DNA from: Patescibacteria group bacterium
GTDB taxonomy: Bacteria > Patescibacteriota > Minisyncoccia > Phycocordibacterales > PALSA-1337
NCBI GenBank assembly: GCA_038065395.1
Contig: JBBTRB010000003.1
Span: 19,851-83,850 of the forward strand
Direction: 5' to 3'
Length of the DNA stretch: 64,000 nt
In this document: positions 6,422 to 63,118 of the stretch, piece by piece
Numbering within the stretch: the stretch's first letter is position 1
Layout: every line of letters begins with the position of its first letter
The notes under the pieces: generated by a model
What the model was told of the DNA's origin: nothing
What the model saw: only the letters and a program-made list of their open reading frames with translations
The model's database searches: none
Program-made: the position numbers and the translations under genes

Positions 6422-6446
6422 AGAAATGTAAGTTTAACTTTATTTT

Positions 6447-6527
6447 GTCATCCCCATGAAAATGGGGATCCAGGATGTCACCACACTCTGTGGCTAGATC
6501 CTGGATTCCCGCCTTCGCGGGAATGAC
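6447..6527. repeat. RPE-like palindromic repeat element, short form (copy 1)
   Basis: Left arm gtcatccccatgaaaatggggatccaggat, spacer, right arm atcctggattcccgccttcgcgggaatgac. Intergenic between the M16 peptidase start and the glyQS stop. Confidence 0.8.
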
Positions 6528-6529
6528 AA

Positions 6530-11543: not shown

Positions 11544-12218
11544 CTACAACTGTGACGCCTGCAAGGAAGCATTGATGATACCGTTCACTTGCACCCGTAT
11601 TGGTGAAAAAGTAGAGAGCAACTCGGCCGAGAGATCGTAGGACATGACGAATGGCTTGGTGACTTCATGGTCACCGATATAGCCGAGCAGGTTCAGGATA
11701 CGGAGCGCAGTGAGAGACTCGAGTTCCGGCAATTTCTCAGCGGGCATATGGCCACTTATTCCGACTGTTGACTCTAGACAGTCAAAAAGTTCTGGATGGG
11801 GATCTTCACCTTGCAGGAGGCGCTTGAGTAACGTGGACATACGGACGAGGAGTTGTGCGTGTATTTTTCTACTGTTTTTTAGTTTGTCATTCCCATGAAA
11901 ATGGGAATCCAGGATATCACCATGTCTTGTGAGCAGATCCTGGATTCCCGCTTGCGCCTCCGCTGCGCTTTGGCTTGCGGGAATGACAGACTGCTGCGCA
12001 CTCGTGAGCCTCCACACTTCTTTGCCCCTGACCAAAGAGAAAATACCGAGTGAATAGTCACTGGTATGGTAGCGGAGTTTCGACTTCTCGAGACGGATGC
12101 CTTGCGCGGCGACCGAGACGAGGCCAAGGTCACGCGTGAAGATCGACAACATCTTCCCTGCTTCGCCGTAGGGGCGTGAACCGATCACAAATCCAGGTGT
12201 AGTATGGATGCTGTACAT
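11544..12218 (-). CDS. recO: DNA repair protein RecO (short form) carrying an in-frame repeat insertion
   Basis: N-term GFVIGSRPYGEAGKMLSIFTRDLGLVSVAAQGIRLEKSKLR matches the RecO OB-fold. Codons 78-111 are encoded by the palindromic repeat. Confidence 0.7.
   Translation of the reverse strand: MYSIHTTPGFVIGSRPYGEAGKMLSIFTRDLGLVSVAAQGIRLEKSKLRYHTSDYSLGIFSLVRGKEVWRLTSAQQSVIPASQSAAEAQAGIQDLLTRHGDILDSHFHGNDKLKNSRKIHAQLLVRMSTLLKRLLQGEDPHPELFDCLESTVGISGHMPAEKLPELESLTALRILNLLGYIGDHEVTKPFVMSYDLSAELLSTFSPIRVQVNGIINASLQASQL
11886..11987. repeat. RPE-like palindromic repeat element (copy 2) inserted in-frame in recO
   Basis: 102 bp (34 codons) beginning on a codon boundary. Arms gtcattcccatgaaaatgggaatccaggat / atcctggattcccgc...gcgggaatgac. 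Encodes VIPASQSAAEAQAGIQDLLTRHGDILDSHFHGND. Confidence 0.8.
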
Positions 12219-12224
12219 CGTCTT

Positions 12225-15200
12225 TTATATTCTCACCGAGAACACTTCACCGTATTCTATAGCCGACAGTCCTGTTGTCTTCTTGATCTCCTGTTCGTAT
12301 TTCATAGCAAGAGGTCGCGCTTCTTCGGTGAGTGTAAGAATCGCCACATCATTCACAGAGAGATTTTTCTCTTTGCGAGCATCTTGGATCTTACGGATGA
12401 GTTCACGGAGATCTCCTTCTTCTTTCAAACTCGGAGTGATAGTGATATCGAGCTCGACATCCTGTGCGATCGAAGTGTCTGTTTTGACTTCTTTGACATT
12501 AACCTCGTCCTTCACAAGTTCGACGAGTTCTGGGGTCAACGATATTTCCTTCCTGACTTTGAGTGTCTGTAGTGGCTGACGAACATTGATCTTGGATTTC
12601 ATACGAGCTTCGAGACCGCGTGAGGCGAGATCACGTACGGTTTGCATATCGGTGATGAGGTTCTTATCGACTATTCCTGCTACTGGCCACTGCTCCAGAT
12701 GCACACTCTCCTTGTCACCTCCTACTTCCTGGTAGAGATACTCTGCGAAGAACGGCGTGAATGGCGCCATGACTTTCGCAAGTGTCACGAGAACATAGTG
12801 AGTCGTCTCCAGTGCATGTCGTGCATCTTCGCCACCATCTTTGAATCGGTCACGTGAACGACGCACATACCACTGTGACAAGTCGGCAATGAAGTCACGT
12901 ATCGCGCGTGTAGGTTCAAGTAACACGTACGCATCCAGACCTGTGGTCACATGCCCCACCAGTTCATCGAGCTTGGAAACAATCCATTTATCTAGCACGT
13001 GCGATGAATTGTTCAATTGTTCCTTTGTTGAATTGTTCCTTGTCCCTTCGTACATCTTATAAAACGTCGTGACATTCGTAACCAAGTTGAACACTTTTTT
13101 GATGATCTCATCGACGGTCTTCTGGTCGAAGTTCTTTGACTCGCCAGGTTGGTTGACCGAGTACATCCAGAAGCGCAATGCATCTGCACCATAGAGATCC
13201 ATCATGTCCCATGGGTTGACCACGTTGCCGATGGATTTGCTCATCTTCTTACCCTCAGCGTCGAGGATATGCCCGAGACAGATGACATTCTTGAATGCCT
13301 TGCCTTTGCCCATGAGTGCACCGATCGCATGGAGCGTATAGAACCACCCACGTGTCTGATCGATGGCTTCGGAGATAAAATCTGCAGGATAGTTGGTGGC
13401 TTTCTTGATCCCCAACAGCTTGCCGTCGATACGATCCTTATTCTCAAAAGGATAATGATCCTGTGCAAAAGGCATCGCCCCCGAGTCGAACCATACGTCC
13501 ATGACTTCTTTGACACGCTTCATCGGAGAACCGCATGAACATGTGAGCGTGACTTCATCTATATACGGACGATGAAGATCGAGTTCGTATTCATGGTTAT
13601 GAGGGAGGATGGAGAAATCCAAGACATGGAACTGTGCATTGTGTATAAAATCCACATCTTTGCGCATGTGCATGGACTCAGATCTATTCCAACCCTTGGC
13701 CGCAGCGAACAAGAGGAATGCGGGCGTCTCATGAGTGACGATCAGGATCTTCTTGCCTTCATGAGTACGTTCCATATCGTACAAAAAGTCACCCATGCGT
13801 TTCTTGATATCGGCGAATGTCTCACCTCCTTCGGGTGCCTGGGTAAATCGGTCGTGACCCTTAAAACCTTTCACAAAATCAGAAACACTCGTCCCATCTG
13901 CAGAACCAGTACCGAGTTCACGGAGACGCTCATCTGTATGCATCGCGCCCTTATCGAGACCCCACGTACTGCGAAGTATTTCTGCGCTTTCTTGCGTACG
14001 CACGAATGGTGACACATATATCATATCGAACTTTTCTTTCTTGAGAGCTTCAGCGGCCACAGTGACCTGAGTCTTTCCTTTCTCTGTGAGATGATGCGGA
14101 ACATCTGCCTTACCAGAAAGGATCGCCTTCACGTTATTCTCTGCCTCTCCATGTCGCATGACATAGTAGGTATTCTTGGGCTTCTGCGCGATCTCTGCCA
14201 CAGATCCTACGACCTGCCTTTTGTCACATCCAGTACATGCCCACACAGGCAGAGGCGTACCCCAATACCGTTCGCGTGAGATCGCCCAGTCTTTGACTTC
14301 TCGGAGCCATTCACCGAACCGACCCTGTCCGATATGAGCAGGTTCCCAAGCAATCTCTGTGTTCTCTGTGACGAGCTTGTCACGGAGCTCGGACATACGG
14401 ATATACCACGAGTCACGCGCAAAATAGATAAGCGGTGTTTTGCAACGCCAACAATGTGGGTAGGTATGCTCGTGTTTCTCTTTATGGAAAAGGAGGCTGC
14501 CCTCTGGGCGGAGCGCCAAGTTCTTGATGATCTCCACGGCAACTTCTTCGCTCTTCACAAACTTACCTGCAAGAAAACCAGCCTCAGACTTGAATGTGCC
14601 GTCATCGTTAACCAGATGATATTTTGGTAAGCCCACCTTTGTGCCAAGCTCAAAGTCGTCTTGGCCATACATCGGCGCGATATGGACGATGCCTGTACCA
14701 TCTTCAGTTGTAACAAAGTCCCCCGCGTATACCTTGAAGGCATTACTGAGCTTGTCTTTCTCTGTGCCGGTCACTCCGTCTTTCAAGAATGGATACAGTG
14801 GTTCATATTCGAGACCAACGAGGTCAGAGCCTTTGAATTCTTTTTCAATTTGATAGGATTCTTTGATCAAACTGAGACGAGTTTTTGCAAGGATGACTCG
14901 GGCGTCCGCGGTCTGATCCTGGATTCCCGTTTTCACGGGAATGACAATCTGGACATACTCAACATCGTTCCCTACCGCCAATCCGACGTTGCCCGGAAGA
15001 GTCCACGGAGTCGTCGTCCATGCCAAAAGAAATGTATTCTTGAATCTTGGATCCTGAATCTTGAACTTAACGTAAACCGACAAGTCTTTGACTGTCTCAT
15101 ACCCCTGCGCGAGTTCATGCGACGAGAGCCCGGTACCGCAGCGCGGACACCATGGTACGACTTTGTAATCCTTATAGAGGAGTTTCTTCTGTTCAACTGT

Positions 15201-15707
15201 CTTGACGATATTCCACAACGACTCGATATAGTTCGGCCTGTAGGTCACGTAGGGATCCTTGAGGTCGACCCAGTACCCCATGCGGTCAGTGAACTTCTCC
15301 CATTCACCGACATATCTCCAGACACTCTCTTTGCATTTCTCATTGAACTTTTCTATGCCGTAGACTTCGATCTCTTTTTTCGACTTGAGTCCGAGCTCTT
15401 TCTCGACTTGGAGTTCCACAGGTAGACCGTGAGTGTCCCAGCCTCCCTTACGACGAACATGGAAGCCCTGCATGGTTTTGTAACGAGGGATAGCGTCCTT
15501 GAAAGCACGAGCCTCGAGGTGGTGGATACCGGGCATGCCGTTGGCTGTCGGAGGTCCTTCGAAGAAGGTGAACTCTCCTTGTGGCGCGTCTTTGTTCAGA
15601 GTCTTGGCGAAGATCCCCTTCTCCTTCCAGGACGCAAGGATACGCTCCTCACGTTCAGCATGAGTGCTTTTGGTATTCTTCTTTTCTGGGGTAACAGGTT
15701 CAGACAT
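12225..15707 (-). CDS. ileS: isoleucine--tRNA ligase with an inserted histidine-phosphatase (PGAM-like) domain
   Basis: 1160 aa with KMSKS, WCPRCGT, TTPWTLP editing and DLHRPYIDE motifs. An extra ~200 aa between the Zn knuckle and DLHRP carries YVMRHGEAENN and SPFVRTQESAEIL. Confidence 0.95.
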   Translation of the reverse strand: MSEPVTPEKKNTKSTHAEREERILASWKEKGIFAKTLNKDAPQGEFTFFEGPPTANGMPGIHHLEARAFKDAIPRYKTMQGFHVRRKGGWDTHGLPVELQVEKELGLKSKKEIEVYGIEKFNEKCKESVWRYVGEWEKFTDRMGYWVDLKDPYVTYRPNYIESLWNIVKTVEQKKLLYKDYKVVPWCPRCGTGLSSHELAQGYETVKDLSVYVKFKIQDPRFKNTFLLAWTTTPWTLPGNVGLAVGNDVEYVQIVIPVKTGIQDQTADARVILAKTRLSLIKESYQIEKEFKGSDLVGLEYEPLYPFLKDGVTGTEKDKLSNAFKVYAGDFVTTEDGTGIVHIAPMYGQDDFELGTKVGLPKYHLVNDDGTFKSEAGFLAGKFVKSEEVAVEIIKNLALRPEGSLLFHKEKHEHTYPHCWRCKTPLIYFARDSWYIRMSELRDKLVTENTEIAWEPAHIGQGRFGEWLREVKDWAISRERYWGTPLPVWACTGCDKRQVVGSVAEIAQKPKNTYYVMRHGEAENNVKAILSGKADVPHHLTEKGKTQVTVAAEALKKEKFDMIYVSPFVRTQESAEILRSTWGLDKGAMHTDERLRELGTGSADGTSVSDFVKGFKGHDRFTQAPEGGETFADIKKRMGDFLYDMERTHEGKKILIVTHETPAFLLFAAAKGWNRSESMHMRKDVDFIHNAQFHVLDFSILPHNHEYELDLHRPYIDEVTLTCSCGSPMKRVKEVMDVWFDSGAMPFAQDHYPFENKDRIDGKLLGIKKATNYPADFISEAIDQTRGWFYTLHAIGALMGKGKAFKNVICLGHILDAEGKKMSKSIGNVVNPWDMMDLYGADALRFWMYSVNQPGESKNFDQKTVDEIIKKVFNLVTNVTTFYKMYEGTRNNSTKEQLNNSSHVLDKWIVSKLDELVGHVTTGLDAYVLLEPTRAIRDFIADLSQWYVRRSRDRFKDGGEDARHALETTHYVLVTLAKVMAPFTPFFAEYLYQEVGGDKESVHLEQWPVAGIVDKNLITDMQTVRDLASRGLEARMKSKINVRQPLQTLKVRKEISLTPELVELVKDEVNVKEVKTDTSIAQDVELDITITPSLKEEGDLRELIRKIQDARKEKNLSVNDVAILTLTEEARPLAMKYEQEIKKTTGLSAIEYGEVFSVRI
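14916..14945. repeat. solo arm of the RPE-like element inside ileS (in-frame)
   Basis: atcctggattcccgttttcacgggaatgac; on the coding strand it encodes VIPVKTGIQD (10 codons). Confidence 0.6.
15041..15065. repeat. 25-nt mini-repeat (CYTGAATCTTRRATCCTRWATCTTG family) inside ileS
   Basis: tgaatcttggatcctgaatcttgaa encodes KFKIQDPRF; similar to two copies in argS. Confidence 0.4.
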
Positions 15708-15758
15708 GGAGTAAAAGTAAAGCTATTTTAGCATATTGGCAAGTTCGAACCTCGCTCC

Positions 15759-17498
15759 TTACATCCTCTCAGGAATTTTGATACCGAGGATCCACAGACC
15801 ATTCCTCATCACCGTTAGAAACGCTTTGGTTACTGCGACGCGATATGCGGACAACGGTTCCTTTTCATCGACAATAACATTCGTGGCGTAGAAGGCATTG
15901 AATGCTCCTGCTAGTTGGATCAAATATCCTGCCACATGTTGCGGTGCATACTCGGCACGTGCACGAGCGATGATATCTGGAAAACGAACTATCAGTCTTT
16001 CGAGAGTACTGACTTGGATAGACGGCATGTCCTGAATCTTGAATCCTGTATCTTGAATCTGTTTTGCCTTCTCCAGAACCGCTCCCGCTCTCACTGCCGC
16101 ATACTGCAGATATGGACCCGAGTCTCCTTCGAATGATACCGACGTCGCAGAATCAAAGATCACGTCACTACCTACGGCTTGACGGAGGATCGTGTATTTG
16201 ATCGCACCGATCGCGATCTCATCACTTACTTTCTCAGCTTCTTCGGGACCAAATTCTCTACCCGAAATCTTTTCTGTTACCAGTTCCTTGATATCATCGA
16301 TCAGACTTTCTGCAGCAATGATATTGCCTTTGCGTGAAGACATTTTCCCTGAAGCAAAGCGCAACATGCCATGACTCATGTGTTTGGTCTTGTCCCCGAT
16401 CTTTGGATTGACCAACGAAAACACTTTCAGAAGTACTTTGAAATAATCACTCTGTTCATTGGCAGTGATGATCACTGACTCATCGAGATCTGGATACAAT
16501 TCGAACTTTTTGCTGTTGAGGCCGAGCTCTTTGGTCTCGTAGGTTGGTAGACCATTGGAAGTGATGAAGACGCGTGTATGCACTCCATAGTCTTCTCCTT
16601 TGAAAATAGTTGCACCCTCACTTTCTATGAATACTTTGCCGAGAAATTCTTTGACGATCTGTACACCCGCATCGGCGACTTCGCTTTCGAAGAAAAAGTT
16701 ATTAAACTTCGTACCGAGACGCGCATAGATCGTGTCAAAATATTCGAGACTCCACTTCCTCCCTTCTTCATACATCTTGTTGATTTCTGGATCAGACTTT
16801 TCGAAGATCTGTTTGTTGATCGCATGTATCTCCTTCTGTGCCACCGCATCGTCTTCGAAAGCATTCGAACCGATCACGTACATCTCACCGAGCCATTTCA
16901 CCTTCTCAGTAATTGTTGAACTCTCTTGAATCTTAAATCCTAAATCTTGCCTCTTGTTTTGTATTGCCCAAATCGTCTTCGCCACATGCAACCCCACATC
17001 ACCCTGGTAACAGGCACGGACAACCTCTGCACCTGATGACTGGACCAGACGTGAAATAGACTCGCCTACTGCGTTCGACATCAAGTGTCCAATATGAAAA
17101 ACCTTGAAAGGGTTTGGGTCGGTATACTCGACCATGACCTTTTTGCTTTTCGAATCAGTCGCCCACCCATATTCCCCGTCACCACTCGCGATCTCCACTA
17201 CCTTCCCCGCAAAGACAGCATCTTTTATCTTGAAGTTGACGAACCCGGGACCAGCGATAGTGATCTGCTCCACAAACTCGAGATCAGCCTTCTCAAGTTC
17301 TGCGACGATCTCTTCTGCCAAAGCACGCGGGCTGACTCCCTTCTTTTTTGCGTACGCCAATGCGACGTTGGTAGCATAGTCACCATGATCCAGGCTCTCT
17401 GGATATTCGAGACGAACTGAGGAAGGGTCCGTAGTAGCAAGGCCTACCCTTGCAAGCGCCGTAACGAGGGCGGCAGTGAGTTCTTGACGCATATTCAT
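15759..17498 (-). CDS. argS: arginine--tRNA ligase
   Basis: 579 aa with HIGHLMSNAVGES (HIGH) and MSSRKG (KMSK) class I motifs. Confidence 0.9.
   Translation of the reverse strand: MNMRQELTAALVTALARVGLATTDPSSVRLEYPESLDHGDYATNVALAYAKKKGVSPRALAEEIVAELEKADLEFVEQITIAGPGFVNFKIKDAVFAGKVVEIASGDGEYGWATDSKSKKVMVEYTDPNPFKVFHIGHLMSNAVGESISRLVQSSGAEVVRACYQGDVGLHVAKTIWAIQNKRQDLGFKIQESSTITEKVKWLGEMYVIGSNAFEDDAVAQKEIHAINKQIFEKSDPEINKMYEEGRKWSLEYFDTIYARLGTKFNNFFFESEVADAGVQIVKEFLGKVFIESEGATIFKGEDYGVHTRVFITSNGLPTYETKELGLNSKKFELYPDLDESVIITANEQSDYFKVLLKVFSLVNPKIGDKTKHMSHGMLRFASGKMSSRKGNIIAAESLIDDIKELVTEKISGREFGPEEAEKVSDEIAIGAIKYTILRQAVGSDVIFDSATSVSFEGDSGPYLQYAAVRAGAVLEKAKQIQDTGFKIQDMPSIQVSTLERLIVRFPDIIARARAEYAPQHVAGYLIQLAGAFNAFYATNVIVDEKEPLSAYRVAVTKAFLTVMRNGLWILGIKIPERM
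16029..16055. repeat. 27-nt mini-repeat copy inside argS
   Basis: Coding strand caagatacaggattcaagattcaggac encodes QDTGFKIQD. Confidence 0.4.
16931..16957. repeat. 27-nt mini-repeat copy inside argS
   Basis: Coding strand caagatttaggatttaagattcaagag encodes QDLGFKIQE; 22/27 nt identical to the 16029 copy. Confidence 0.4.
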
Positions 17499-25237: not shown

Positions 25238-25253
25238 TAATGACCCTGGTTTT

Positions 25254-25431
25254 GTCATCCCCGCGAAGGCGGGGATCCAGGAGTAAGGGCGTAGCTACTT
25301 ACTTAACTCTATACAATTACAAAAGTCAGCATCATGTACATGAATGCTGACTTTCTGTTTTCTGTGATTAGATAAACCGATCGAACCATATACTGAAAGT
25401 GATTCTGGATCCCCGCCTTCGCGGGGATGAC
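25254..25431. repeat. RPE-like palindromic repeat element, long form (copy 3)
   Basis: Arms gtcatccccgcgaaggcggggatccaggag / attctggatccccgccttcgcggggatgac flank an AT-rich core with a perfect 9-bp hairpin agtcagcat...atgctgact. Confidence 0.8.
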
Positions 25432-25438
25432 ACGCAAT

Positions 25439-27986: not shown

Positions 27987-28028
27987 ATAGATATATTTAT
28001 CTGGTAATTACGTTCATTATACATGCGT

Positions 28029-28110
28029 GTCATCCCCGTGAAAACGGGGATCCAGGATATGACCACGTCATGTGACCAGAATCCTGGATTCCCGCATACG
28101 CGGGAATGAC
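28029..28110. repeat. RPE-like palindromic repeat element, short form (copy 4)
   Basis: gtcatccccgtgaaaacggggatccaggat ... atcctggattcccgcatacgcgggaatgac; ends 4 nt before the folD stop codon. Confidence 0.8.
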
Positions 28111-28113
28111 ATT

Positions 28114-29402: not shown

Positions 29403-30338
29403 TCACCTCCCCCACCTTGCGAAAATACCACATGGCAACAGCCTTTTCTCTGGACCGGATTCTTGGAGAGTGAGCTCCCCTATTTCGATCTCGCCACCAA
29501 ACGTCTTCTGGAGAGAAAGAAGGTTGTTCTCATAGGCGATAGCGGAATATCCGGCAGAGTAACCATTGATCAGGAAGAATAGTGGCCCGCCTCGAGCGTC
29601 GTCGAGAGGCTTCAAAAGCTTCTTGCACTCTTCTACTAATGTACGAAAATGCTCTTCGATCTTCCAGACTTCACTGTCAGGTCCGTGGCCAAAAGCCGGT
29701 GGATCCATGATGATGCCGTCGTAGGTACGACCACGTTTGATCTCACGTTCGACGAATGCACGCACATCTTCGACGATCCAACGGATCGGTTTGTCTGACA
29801 GACCAGAGAGTTCGGCGTTCTCACGCGCCCAGGTCACCGCCGCCTTGGAACTGTCGATATGGACCACCTTGGCTCCCGCCTGCGCACAAGCCAAACTCGC
29901 CCCACCCGTATATCCAAAAAGGTTGAGGACTTCTATGTCTTCACTTACGCCTTGCACCTTTTCACTGTCACTTTTTGCTTTTTGCTTTTTGATTATGTCT
30001 TGCAGCCAACTCCAGTTGCTCGCCTGTTCTGGGAAGAGTCCGGTATGTTTGAAAGCCGTCGGCTTGATCCACAGCTTGAGACCTCCGAATTCGATGGACC
30101 ACTTCTCGAGCGGCATGTTACCGCGGTATGCCCATTCGGCCCCACTACTGTCACGGGTAAAATATGCATCAGCCTTTTTCCAATCGGTTTCGGGCAAGGA
30201 CTTGTTCCACAACGCTTGCGGATCTGGTCGCGACAATACATGCGCACCAAAACGTTCGAGCTTCTCCCCTTCTCCAGAGTCGAGGAGTTCGTAGTTGGCC
30301 TGGGATGGGATGGTGAGTATGTGTGAGTTTTTGTTCAT
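29403..30338 (-). CDS. class I SAM-dependent rRNA methyltransferase (RlmI/RlmK-like)
   Basis: LNLFGYTGGASLACAQAGAKVVHIDSS (SAM motif I) and GIIMDPPAFG (motif IV). Confidence 0.65.
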   Translation of the reverse strand: MNKNSHILTIPSQANYELLDSGEGEKLERFGAHVLSRPDPQALWNKSLPETDWKKADAYFTRDSSGAEWAYRGNMPLEKWSIEFGGLKLWIKPTAFKHTGLFPEQASNWSWLQDIIKKQKAKSDSEKVQGVSEDIEVLNLFGYTGGASLACAQAGAKVVHIDSSKAAVTWARENAELSGLSDKPIRWIVEDVRAFVEREIKRGRTYDGIIMDPPAFGHGPDSEVWKIEEHFRTLVEECKKLLKPLDDARGGPLFFLINGYSAGYSAIAYENNLLSLQKTFGGEIEIGELTLQESGPEKRLLPCGIFARWGR

Positions 30339-47491: not shown

Positions 47492-48479
47492 TTACTACCA
47501 GGCTATTAATAAGATTAAAGAGTGCGAACATGATGACGATCAGTCCTGCAGTCTTGAAGAACACTCCGGCCTTGGAACTCTTTTGAATGCTGAATGAACT
47601 GAAGCTAATAAGGGCAAGGACCGGTAAAGTTCCGAGTGCAAATGCAAGCATGGTAAGTCCACCACTGAGGAAACTCCCCGTTGTTAGGGTGTATAGCTGC
47701 ATTGACTGAGTGAATCCACATGGTAGGAAGAATGTTGCCACACCTACAAGAAACGGAGTGAGAGTATGGTTGAACTTTGAAACCCCGTGTGCATGCTTAG
47801 CAATAAACTTTGGCATTGATGGCTGAAGTTTCTTGGCCCAATGGAAGGTATCAAGAAGATTGATACCGAGGATAAGCATTACGATGCCAATGATTAGACT
47901 CAAGATAAATGTAGCTGAGGTGTTCAGAGTAAAGGCTGAACCAATAGCACCAATTACTCCACCGAGAATAAAGAACGCTACTATTCGGCCACCATGGAAC
48001 ATGAGCTGAGGACGTATCTTGTCACCTTCTTTAGCAAACGTTGCGGACATTGATAGGACCAGGCCACCAACAACCGCCATACAGGTTGAAAGCGAAGCGA
48101 TTATACCGATCACAAATGCTGTGCCGTAGGTCACATTACCTACACTAACAAGATTCACGATTCCCATTTTCTGTAGCACTACGAAGAGTACAGCAAAGCC
48201 CAGTGCTATCGGGACCGCAATTTTGAAGTCTCCCCATTTAGCTATATGCTGCTTTTTTTCAACTGAAACAGTGTAGCCATGAGGCCTCAGCGGTATTGTA
48301 AGATCCTCCGCAATCTGCACTTCCGTCTTATCACCGAACTCTCCGGTGACTTCTACTGAATGCTTTTTAAGACTCGATTTAACATGAGTGATATTAGGCA
48401 GATCGCCAAGCTCGCTCTCGGTCATGAGAACACAAGCGTTGCAGTGCATGCCGTGTACGTGAAAGGTTAATGTTTTCAT
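47460..48479 (-). CDS. HMA domain fused to DsbD_2/UreH-like transmembrane domain (putative metal transporter)
   Basis: N-terminal GMHCNACV (HMA MxCxxC), then about 6 TM segments with FFLPCGF. Confidence 0.6.
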   Translation of the reverse strand: MKTLTFHVHGMHCNACVLMTESELGDLPNITHVKSSLKKHSVEVTGEFGDKTEVQIAEDLTIPLRPHGYTVSVEKKQHIAKWGDFKIAVPIALGFAVLFVVLQKMGIVNLVSVGNVTYGTAFVIGIIASLSTCMAVVGGLVLSMSATFAKEGDKIRPQLMFHGGRIVAFFILGGVIGAIGSAFTLNTSATFILSLIIGIVMLILGINLLDTFHWAKKLQPSMPKFIAKHAHGVSKFNHTLTPFLVGVATFFLPCGFTQSMQLYTLTTGSFLSGGLTMLAFALGTLPVLALISFSSFSIQKSSKAGVFFKTAGLIVIMFALFNLINSLVVIGVIPPVFNF

Positions 48480-62769: not shown

Positions 62770-62909
62770 ACCAACCTTTCTGATCCTCTCGGATCTCTTG
62801 CAATCCCCTCTCGGGGATATTATGTATGTTCTTGCTCTCGCAAGAGGCTTACAACGTGCAAACCTGACTGAACTCTATGCTTTTTCGGGAAGATGTCAAA
62901 TGCGGTTGT

Positions 62910-63095
62910 GTCATCCTCGCGCAGGCGGGGATCTAGGAGCAAGGGCATGGCTACTTATTTAATATCTATACAACCACAAAACATTAGATACTATCCCTGT
63001 AAGTAAATGCCGAACCTATCACATTTATTATTTACATAGCCTAAGTCGACTATATACTGGGAGTGATTCTGGATCCCCGCCTGCGCGGGGATGAC
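62910..63095. repeat. RPE-like palindromic repeat element, long form (copy 5)
   Basis: gtcatcctcgcgcaggcggggatctaggag ... attctggatccccgcctgcgcggggatgac. Inner termini aagggcatggctactta... and ...atatactgggagtg match the 25254 copy. Confidence 0.8.
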
Positions 63096-63118
63096 ACAGG
63101 ACAGAGAGATATGTAGGT

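Follow-up and report, generated by a model that had tools for sequence, protein, structure and literature searches.

Heptanucleotide units form the commonest class of long simple sequence repeats (SSRs) in prokaryotes, as the work of Mrazek, Guo and Shah (2007) is summarised in PMC4679880 and PMC4692102. In these summaries the long SSRs are head-to-tail 7-nt arrays, the unit length of 7 is over-represented and polymerase slippage is proposed; the arrays are mainly intergenic, and coding regions hold units that are multiples of three. Heptamers were not treated by Lin and Kussell (2012). Species-specific 7-nt units in 2–6 or more copies are also known as named families, namely STRR of cyanobacteria, TAACTGA of Beggiatoaceae, Cyanobacteria and Bacteroidetes (PMC4679880) and GGGAATC/GGGGA(T/C)T of Xanthomonas and Nostoc (PMC4692102). 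These families occasionally occur as inverted pairs, are scattered in their phyletic distribution and vary in length and sequence among close relatives; they are mostly intergenic, with proposed regulatory or G-quadruplex roles, and the GGGAATC repeats are found less often than expected in coding sequences (PMC4692102). Here we describe arrays of a 7-nt unit, CARGATT, inside the genes of arginine–tRNA ligase (ArgRS, argS) and isoleucine–tRNA ligase (IleRS, ileS) of a Patescibacteria group bacterium (assembly GCA_038065395.1). The analysed stretch of DNA, called the window below, comprises 64,000 nt (contig JBBTRB010000003.1, positions 19,851 to 83,850 of the forward strand). Like the described SSRs, these arrays contain at least three head-to-tail units, exceed both chance and other repeat periods and show turnover between relatives, but they lie in frame in essential aminoacyl-tRNA synthetase (aaRS) genes at conserved hot spots. 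The unit GGGGATT differs from CAGGATT at two positions; unlike the named families, CARGATT contains no G-tracts and is translated here.

Non-triplet SSRs within coding sequences are also found in phase-variable contingency loci, where they act as frameshift switches. The hosts of the arrays described here are, in contrast, single-copy synthetase genes, and since argS and ileS are essential, an on/off switch by an SSR would be lethal, which sets the arrays apart from contingency loci. Rickettsia palindromic elements (RPEs), reportedly described by Ogata and colleagues in 2000, are said to be mobile palindromic elements of 100–150 bp which reside in frame in protein genes and add to their length. 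In both cases repeated DNA is translated as a foreign peptide in surface regions of essential proteins whose function stays intact, but the arrays are direct tandem repeats of 28–36 nt that add no length and showed no palindrome in the repeat searches, their fold not having been computed. The tandem repeats of Borgs (PMC9879509) are likewise near-perfect and fast-evolving, lie within open reading frames (ORFs), encode low-complexity or disordered segments and have many independent origins. However, Borgs are archaeal extrachromosomal elements with longer units, and the 7-nt unit is not a multiple of three. The literature search found no paper on CAAGATT/CAGGATT arrays, on FKIQDS-type peptides or on heptamer SSRs within Patescibacteria genes, and nothing relevant on Patescibacteria tandem repeats and aaRS. 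The 7-nt SSRs as such are known; their in-frame residence in essential genes of Patescibacteria, as read from the sequences, appears not to have been described.

The host genes are neighbours on the minus strand, and the ArgRS of the window is identical to the NCBI protein MEK7646240.1. This match and the ArgRS homologs assign the window to a metagenome-assembled genome of Patescibacteria (Paceibacterota/Parcubacteria-like). The genes and the three arrays are as follows.

15759–17498, minus strand: argS, arginine–tRNA ligase, 579 aa, host of two arrays (ORF; Pfam Arg_tRNA_synt_N, tRNA-synt_1d and DALR_1; homologs)
12225–15707, minus strand: ileS, isoleucine–tRNA ligase, 1160 aa, host of one array (ORF; Pfam; PDB matches)
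16921–16957, minus strand: heptanucleotide array in argS, site 1 (Tandem Repeats Finder (TRF); repeat-family search; lag-7 scan; translation; AlphaFold model)
16028–16062, minus strand: heptanucleotide array in argS, site 2 (TRF with periods 7 and 14; repeat-family search; lag-7 scan; translation; AlphaFold model)
15033–15068, minus strand: heptanucleotide array in ileS (TRF; repeat-family search; lag-7 scan; translation; PDB alignment)

Each copy consists of four to five head-to-tail heptamer units, which read CARGATT on the coding strand and AATCYTG on the plus strand. At argS site 1 the coding strand is CAAGAGG CAAGATT TAGGATT TAAGATT CAAGAGA and encodes KRQDLGFKIQES (ArgRS aa ~181–193). 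Site 2 is ACAGATT CAAGATA CAGGATT CAAGATT CAGGACA and encodes QIQDTGFKIQDM (ArgRS aa ~480–492), and the ileS array is TTCAAGA TTCAGGA TCCAAGA TTCAAGA AT, encoding (K)FKIQDPRFKN (IleRS aa ~213–224). TRF reported period-7 arrays of 3.6–4.0 copies at all three sites (15038–15065, 16033–16060, the latter also with period 14, and 16924–16948). The repeat-family search joined the sites into one direct family, D6 (15038–15063, 16030–16055 and 16924–16949), with 88% identity to the reference copy. The first-pass annotation had described the three stretches as copies of one DNA-level repeat lying in unrelated parts of two proteins, which was confirmed, and as a single element of 25–27 nt, which was not: each copy is a tandem 7-nt array, and the head-to-tail unit alone explains the likeness of the copies. 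The peptides QDTGFKIQD (16029–16055), QDLGFKIQE and KFKIQDPRF were correctly read; the second argS copy, placed at 16931–16957, actually lies at 16923–16949, 8 nt away. The identity of 22/27 that had been given for the two argS copies falls to 5/27 at those coordinates and is recovered as 22/26 when 16030–16055 is compared with 16924–16949. The AATCCTG/GGATCC core that the copies were said to share is only a 6–7-mer and carries no weight, since ~30 occurrences of a 6-mer are expected in the 128 kb that the two strands make up.

The repeat itself is not a random occurrence. A search of the window for the 21-mer of three AATCTTG units, with up to three mismatches, gave four matches where 0.00 were expected, none of them outside the three sites, and two AATCYTR units with at most one mismatch were matched eight times (0.42 expected), seven of these at the three sites. 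The AATCGTGAATCTTG match at 48149 is an isolated two-unit match and not an array. Tandem periods were compared by a lag-autocorrelation scan, in which an array was defined by at least 16 matches out of 21; a stricter initial threshold gave no arrays. Period 7 was the sole enriched tandem period in the window, with four arrays, compared with 0–1 for each of the other periods from 4 to 15 and none in shuffled sequences. Besides the three CARGATT arrays, one further array of the same feature class and of another family was found.

29963–30002, minus strand: fourth heptanucleotide array, (CAAAAAG)3, in frame in a 311-aa ORF (29403–30338) and encoding ..IIKKQKAKSD.. (TRF 29971–29991 with 100% matches; lag-7 scan; translation)

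Three units make up 21 nt, that is, seven codons, which are read as FKIQDS(G/R). As 7 and 3 have no common factor, every reading frame of a CARGATT array gives this cyclic peptide, and this is why FKIQD/E recurs at unrelated positions of two proteins. On the complementary strand each unit carries a TGA, so only the CARGATT orientation can be read through in an ORF. Among the related loci (designated by L numbers below), in-frame arrays of the antisense, AATCTTR-type orientation were observed in the C-terminal region of IleRS in L216 (9513–9554) and L220 (6065–6099), with the peptides LKLKSKILNLKS and NHESRIMNLES; unit substitutions there abolish the in-frame TGA or TAA of a perfect array.

The arrays occupy structurally permissive surface loops, two in ArgRS and one in IleRS. 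In the AlphaFold model of ArgRS (mean pLDDT 91), aa 183–195 and 483–497 form coil between helices. Site 1 corresponds to the loop between helices 170–182 and 196–216 (mean pLDDT 70 for residues 181–190), and site 2 to the linker loop between helices 461–482 and 498–516, where the DALR domain begins (mean pLDDT 63 for residues 481–490); both blocks are among the lowest-scoring in the model. Alignments with solved ArgRS structures were gapped and poor at both loops. In ileS the array has its start in the conserved KFKI strand, from which it extends into the variable loop preceding WTTTPWTLP. The KFKI position is occupied by VKFKV in PDB 8c8w and by VRFPL in 1ile (VYVRFPLKEPKK), which indicates that the protein had KFKI ancestrally and that only the loop after it is free. 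The two argS loops have the same lengths as those of the orthologs P0016 and L001, and the length of the IleRS array loop is within the range of 8c8w and 1ile. With no extra length relative to array-free orthologs and structures, the arrays replace sequence; of the in-frame insertion that had been suggested, the frame stands and the insertion does not.

The arrays were then compared with the DNA of eleven orthologs with 57–74% identity. The 7-nt periodicity at site 1 was kept in 8/8 orthologs compared and, with other units, in at least 12 more distant ones. CARGATT-like units are present at this site in L001, L003, L004 and L126 (for example, CAAGATG CAAGAAT CGGGATT CAAGATT in L001 and GAAGATT CAGGATT CAGGATA CAAGATT in L004), a homogenised variant AAGGATC/AAAAATC in L125 and AAAATTY in L127. 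At site 2, three perfect CAAGATA units were found in L129, CARGATT-like units in L130, (TGGAGAC)3 in L004 and (AGTCACA)3 in L126, and the same loop holds other heptamer arrays in L129, L130, L004, L126, L196, L197, L205 and L255. Arrays at the position equivalent to the ileS site were revealed in L001, L004, L204, L216, L218, L228, L231 and L254. None of the orthologs examined has an array out of frame, and the same loops hold lineage-specific homogenised units, that is, the arrays turn over between relatives. Over the whole gene, synonymous sites approach saturation (where residues are identical, the fraction of identical codons is 0.47); the perfect units are therefore no relics and must be recent or renewed. 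The identical-codon fraction of the site-1 motif, 0.60 versus 0.47 gene-wide, is suggestive only. Conservation of the peptides in orthologs that lack the DNA repeat had been proposed as grounds for rejecting the inserted repeat; the outcome was mixed, as several orthologs do conserve the site-1 peptide, but their DNA has retained the 7-nt periodicity as well.

The arrays are members of a pervasive class in Paceibacterota-like Patescibacteria, found in the same few aaRS loops in many species. A metagenome scan gave 80 argS loci of related Patescibacteria (587 kb), in which 87 arrays of period 7 were counted, compared with 21 of period 12, 19 of period 9, 18 of period 14 (the double of 7), 12 of period 6 and at most 8 of any other. 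Stop-free spans of at least 150 codons contain 73 of the 87, and all three CARGATT arrays of the window (3/3) are inside ORFs, which distinguishes them from the intergenic families. After removal of duplicates, 69 distinct period-7 arrays remained (a hand count of the listing), 49 of them in argS or ileS at recurring hot spots. In ArgRS these are aa 63–80, 177–200 (site 1) and 474–494 (site 2); in IleRS they are aa 209–225 (the ileS array of the window), 885–904, 1006–1018 and 1045–1061. The units in relatives are diverse and include AAAGTTC, GAAAGTT, AAAAGTT, AAAGATC, AAAAATC, CAATTTT, CCAATTT, AAATTCC, ACACGCT and AATGATC. An identical scan of 100 kb of Escherichia coli K-12 including ileS and argS gave no period-7 arrays. 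One of the IleRS hot spots of the window carries a different kind of duplication, in a loop where heptamer arrays are present in ~10 related genomes.

13007–13041, minus strand: 16-nt tandem duplication AGGAACAATTSAACAA x2 with an internal 8-nt period, in ileS, IleRS aa ~889–900 (TRF; sequence)

The unit (CARGATT)3 is itself widespread. In species-representative genomes at least 120 loci were found, against ~2 expected by chance, and the matches listed come from many phyla, with Acidobacteriota, Bacteroidota, Gallionella, Nitrospirae, Microcystis, Vibrionaceae and several Patescibacteria among the sources. A large part of the listed matches lie between genes, frequently with an inverted heptamer array as partner. 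In-frame (CARGATT)3 was also found in proteins named from conserved sequence motifs, not from database matches, namely LeuRS (L024, L093, L110), SecA (L017), GatA (L069), MurB (L113), MurF (L045) and LpxB (L029). In the LeuRS of L024 (Tannerella) and L093 (Paceibacterota) the repeat stands directly after NWIG(R/K)SEG, a position homologous to that of the ileS array of the window; L110, whose LeuRS also carries it in frame, is a member of Paceibacterota as well. In Bacteroidota and Acidobacteriota (Pyrinomonadaceae; L040, L043, L048, L056, L061, L090, L096, L112), intergenic (CARGATT)n is often followed by an inverted array, forming long hairpins, and is mixed with the heptamers TAAGATT, CAAGAGT, GCAAAAT and CCGAAAT. 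In viral contigs (CARGATT)3 was found at 27 loci, the reversed unit at 8 and a permuted unit at 25.

Arrays at different sites of one genome have the same unit far more often than arrays from different genomes do. In the argS–ileS neighbourhood, to which this sample refers, 10 of the 14 multi-array genomes contained a pair of units within one mismatch (4.2 expected, p = 3e-4), and six contained identical units at different sites (1.1 expected, p = 1.5e-4). Among arrays separated by less than 5 kb the sharing was 25–46%, beyond 5 kb it was 1/22, and this concentration points to copying or conversion between nearby arrays. The window matches the pattern, with three CARGATT arrays within 1.9 kb and the other unit 13 kb away. 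As units at different sites of one genome are shared above chance, the word family, used in the first-pass annotation, is a fair term for the arrays.

The same annotation had suggested that the arrays are a degenerate sub-family of a hairpin-arm element. This element, resembling a miniature inverted-repeat transposable element (MITE), has arms of ~31–35 nt of the form TGTCATYCCC-N8-GGGRATCCAGGAT, mostly in inverted pairs 21–124 nt apart. Its sites in the window are as follows.

6446–6529: MITE-like arm site
11884–11990: MITE-like arm site
14907–14950: MITE-like arm site, a solo arm in frame in ileS
25253–25432: MITE-like arm site
28027–28112: MITE-like arm site
62907–63098: MITE-like arm site

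The solo arm encodes IPVKTGIQDQ and is a true insertion of ~10 residues relative to 8c8w and 1ile; within the window it is a better analogue of the RPEs than the arrays are. The pattern of the arms was defined by the hairpin core ATYCCC-N4-12-GGGRAT with the flanks ..GTCAT and CAGGAT. Its core gave 12 matches in the window, mostly arm copies and all outside the arrays, and the array sequences contain no such core. The arrays were recovered only as the direct family D6 and were absent from the 25 longest of 222 inverted pairs. In 847 kb of other loci with (CARGATT)3, only three arm cores were present, one of them within 150 nt of an array. Derivation of the arrays from the hairpin-arm element is thus not supported: they have no core, no inverted repeat and no defined ends, and the cores are nearly absent from heptamer-bearing genomes.

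All these data make it likely that the three arrays are coding heptanucleotide microsatellites that sit in permissive loops, are kept periodic by concerted evolution, encode a tolerated linker and do not derive from the hairpin arms. The arrays would be old residents of the ArgRS and IleRS loops, and their periodicity would be kept by copying, through slipped strands or template switches, from unit to unit and from one array to another nearby. Changes that shift the frame or create stop codons would be filtered out by selection, and the encoded peptide, which is most likely a tolerated linker, would be of low complexity and not a functional motif. The CARGATT unit itself is probably not special.

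Several points weigh against this interpretation. Slippage by one unit is a 7-nt frameshift in an essential gene, and the in-frame origin and homogenisation of 4–5 near-perfect units are unaccounted for; within-genome sharing of units is also not expected from purely local slippage. In viral contigs the loci with (CARGATT)3 do not clearly outnumber those with a permuted heptamer, so the phyletic spread of CARGATT may reflect heptamer SSRs in general. The site-1 peptide (D/E)SGFKIQE is conserved in about six or seven orthologs, and the codon of its Gly is GGA in 7/7 cases, compared with a GGA usage of 22–33%; selection on either the peptide or the DNA could underlie this conservation. As for strain-level length polymorphism, the closest relatives found have at most 74% identity (none above 71% in the metagenome scan for close strains), and within the 90% cluster the arrays do not differ. 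With regard to the first two points, it is conceivable, if doubtful, that 7-nt microsatellites of Patescibacteria are homogenised between nearby loci by templated copying, that is, by template switching or short-tract gene conversion in steps compatible with 21 nt, and not by one-unit slippage.

A rival view, in line with the first-pass annotation, is that the arrays are a tiny mobile or copied module, a ready-made heptamer array, possibly related to the hairpin arm, that is pasted into permissive sites, including in frame. An array that is in frame cannot grow unit by unit, which would favour a ready-made block of at least three units; three arrays of the same unit lie within 1.9 kb, and sites within a genome have units in common well above chance, for the most part at distances of up to 5 kb. 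Moreover, a solo hairpin arm is truly inserted in ileS 85 nt from the ileS array, and the arms end in ..GGGRATC CAGGAT, which resembles two heptamer-type units. We nevertheless consider such a module unlikely. The arrays lack defined ends, inverted repeats and target duplications, none of the three sites has gained length, and arm-type cores are very rare in other heptamer-carrying genomes (three in 847 kb). The same loops hold quite different units in other species, which fits turnover in place, and, as the ileS array starts on the codons of the conserved F-K-I, its unit appears to be of local origin.

Selection could also act on the product and not on the DNA. FKIQ(D/E), or a pattern of alternating lysine and hydrophobic residues followed by three polar ones (K-hydrophobic-K-hydrophobic-polar-polar-polar), would then be kept for RNA contact, partner binding or a beta-hairpin, with the periodicity as a by-product. 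This would agree with the conserved site-1 peptide (P0002, P0006, P0010 and P0021, partly P0003 and P0117), with the similar Lys-rich alternating peptides that different units give at the same hot spots (KFKVQSS, KLKVESL, SKIKDQK) and with the overlap of KFKI and a conserved strand in IleRS. It is nonetheless improbable, as model confidence is low in the loops, which are hypervariable among orthologs, the enrichment is at period 7 and not at period 21, and CARGATT also occurs in intergenic arrays, hairpins, unrelated proteins and many phyla. In addition, the identity of units reaches synonymous positions, and perfect arrays such as 3x CAAGATA (L129) and 4x AAAGTTC (L197) do not result from selection on a peptide. 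A cis-acting nucleic-acid signal, for example, a site bound by a protein, a cluster of GANTC methylation sites or an element in the mRNA that acts on translation or decay, would explain why DNA periodicity is kept at orthologous positions despite saturated synonymous sites, and the sequence of (CARGATT)n offers one GATTC (GANTC) per unit. It is very improbable, however: the unit at a given site differs so widely between species that no common recognition sequence is conserved, one copy in the window has a single GAATC only, and an Rfam scan of the window gave two tRNAs and no family at the arrays. The idea of GANTC clusters was dropped because some unit variants have no GANTC. Chance similarity or low-complexity noise, for which nothing speaks except the short length of each copy, has a negligible probability in view of four matches against none expected, the period-7 excess in both the window and the 587 kb, and the conservation at orthologous sites.

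Two further observations concern the host gene ileS. A complete His_Phos_1 (histidine phosphatase) domain is inserted within the catalytic domain of IleRS (aa 515–682; Pfam, E = 4e-33), and the same architecture is precomputed for the relatives L001, L003, L125 and L131. In the NCBI assembly GCA_001189105.1 (L002, 13269–13362) the IleRS gene is called as two ORFs of 399 and 651 aa, and in L001, the matching JGI contig with the same ArgRS protein, it is a single gene for 1144 aa; the discrepancy could be a frameshift or an assembly difference.

Heptanucleotide microsatellites maintained in coding loops, as the arrays are interpreted here, run counter to expectation. Essential genes would be expected to lose microsatellites with non-triplet units, since a single slip shifts the frame; here heptamer arrays are the dominant tandem-repeat class and lie inside aaRS genes at conserved hot spots in many species of candidate phyla. 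The finding in the window alone is modest, and the pattern beyond it is lineage-wide and counter-intuitive. Heptamer segments can mislead alignments and phylogenies of marker proteins through spurious shared motifs such as FKIQDSR and FRIQDSG, and the arrays could serve as strain markers. If confirmed genome-wide, they would provide a system for studying why 7 nt is favoured in prokaryotic SSRs and how repeats are homogenised without a change in length, and would explain part of the odd low-complexity loop insertions in the proteins of these bacteria. If homogenisation between nearby loci were true, local templated copying would be a built-in engine by which core proteins have their surface loops rewritten with a unit specific to the genome.

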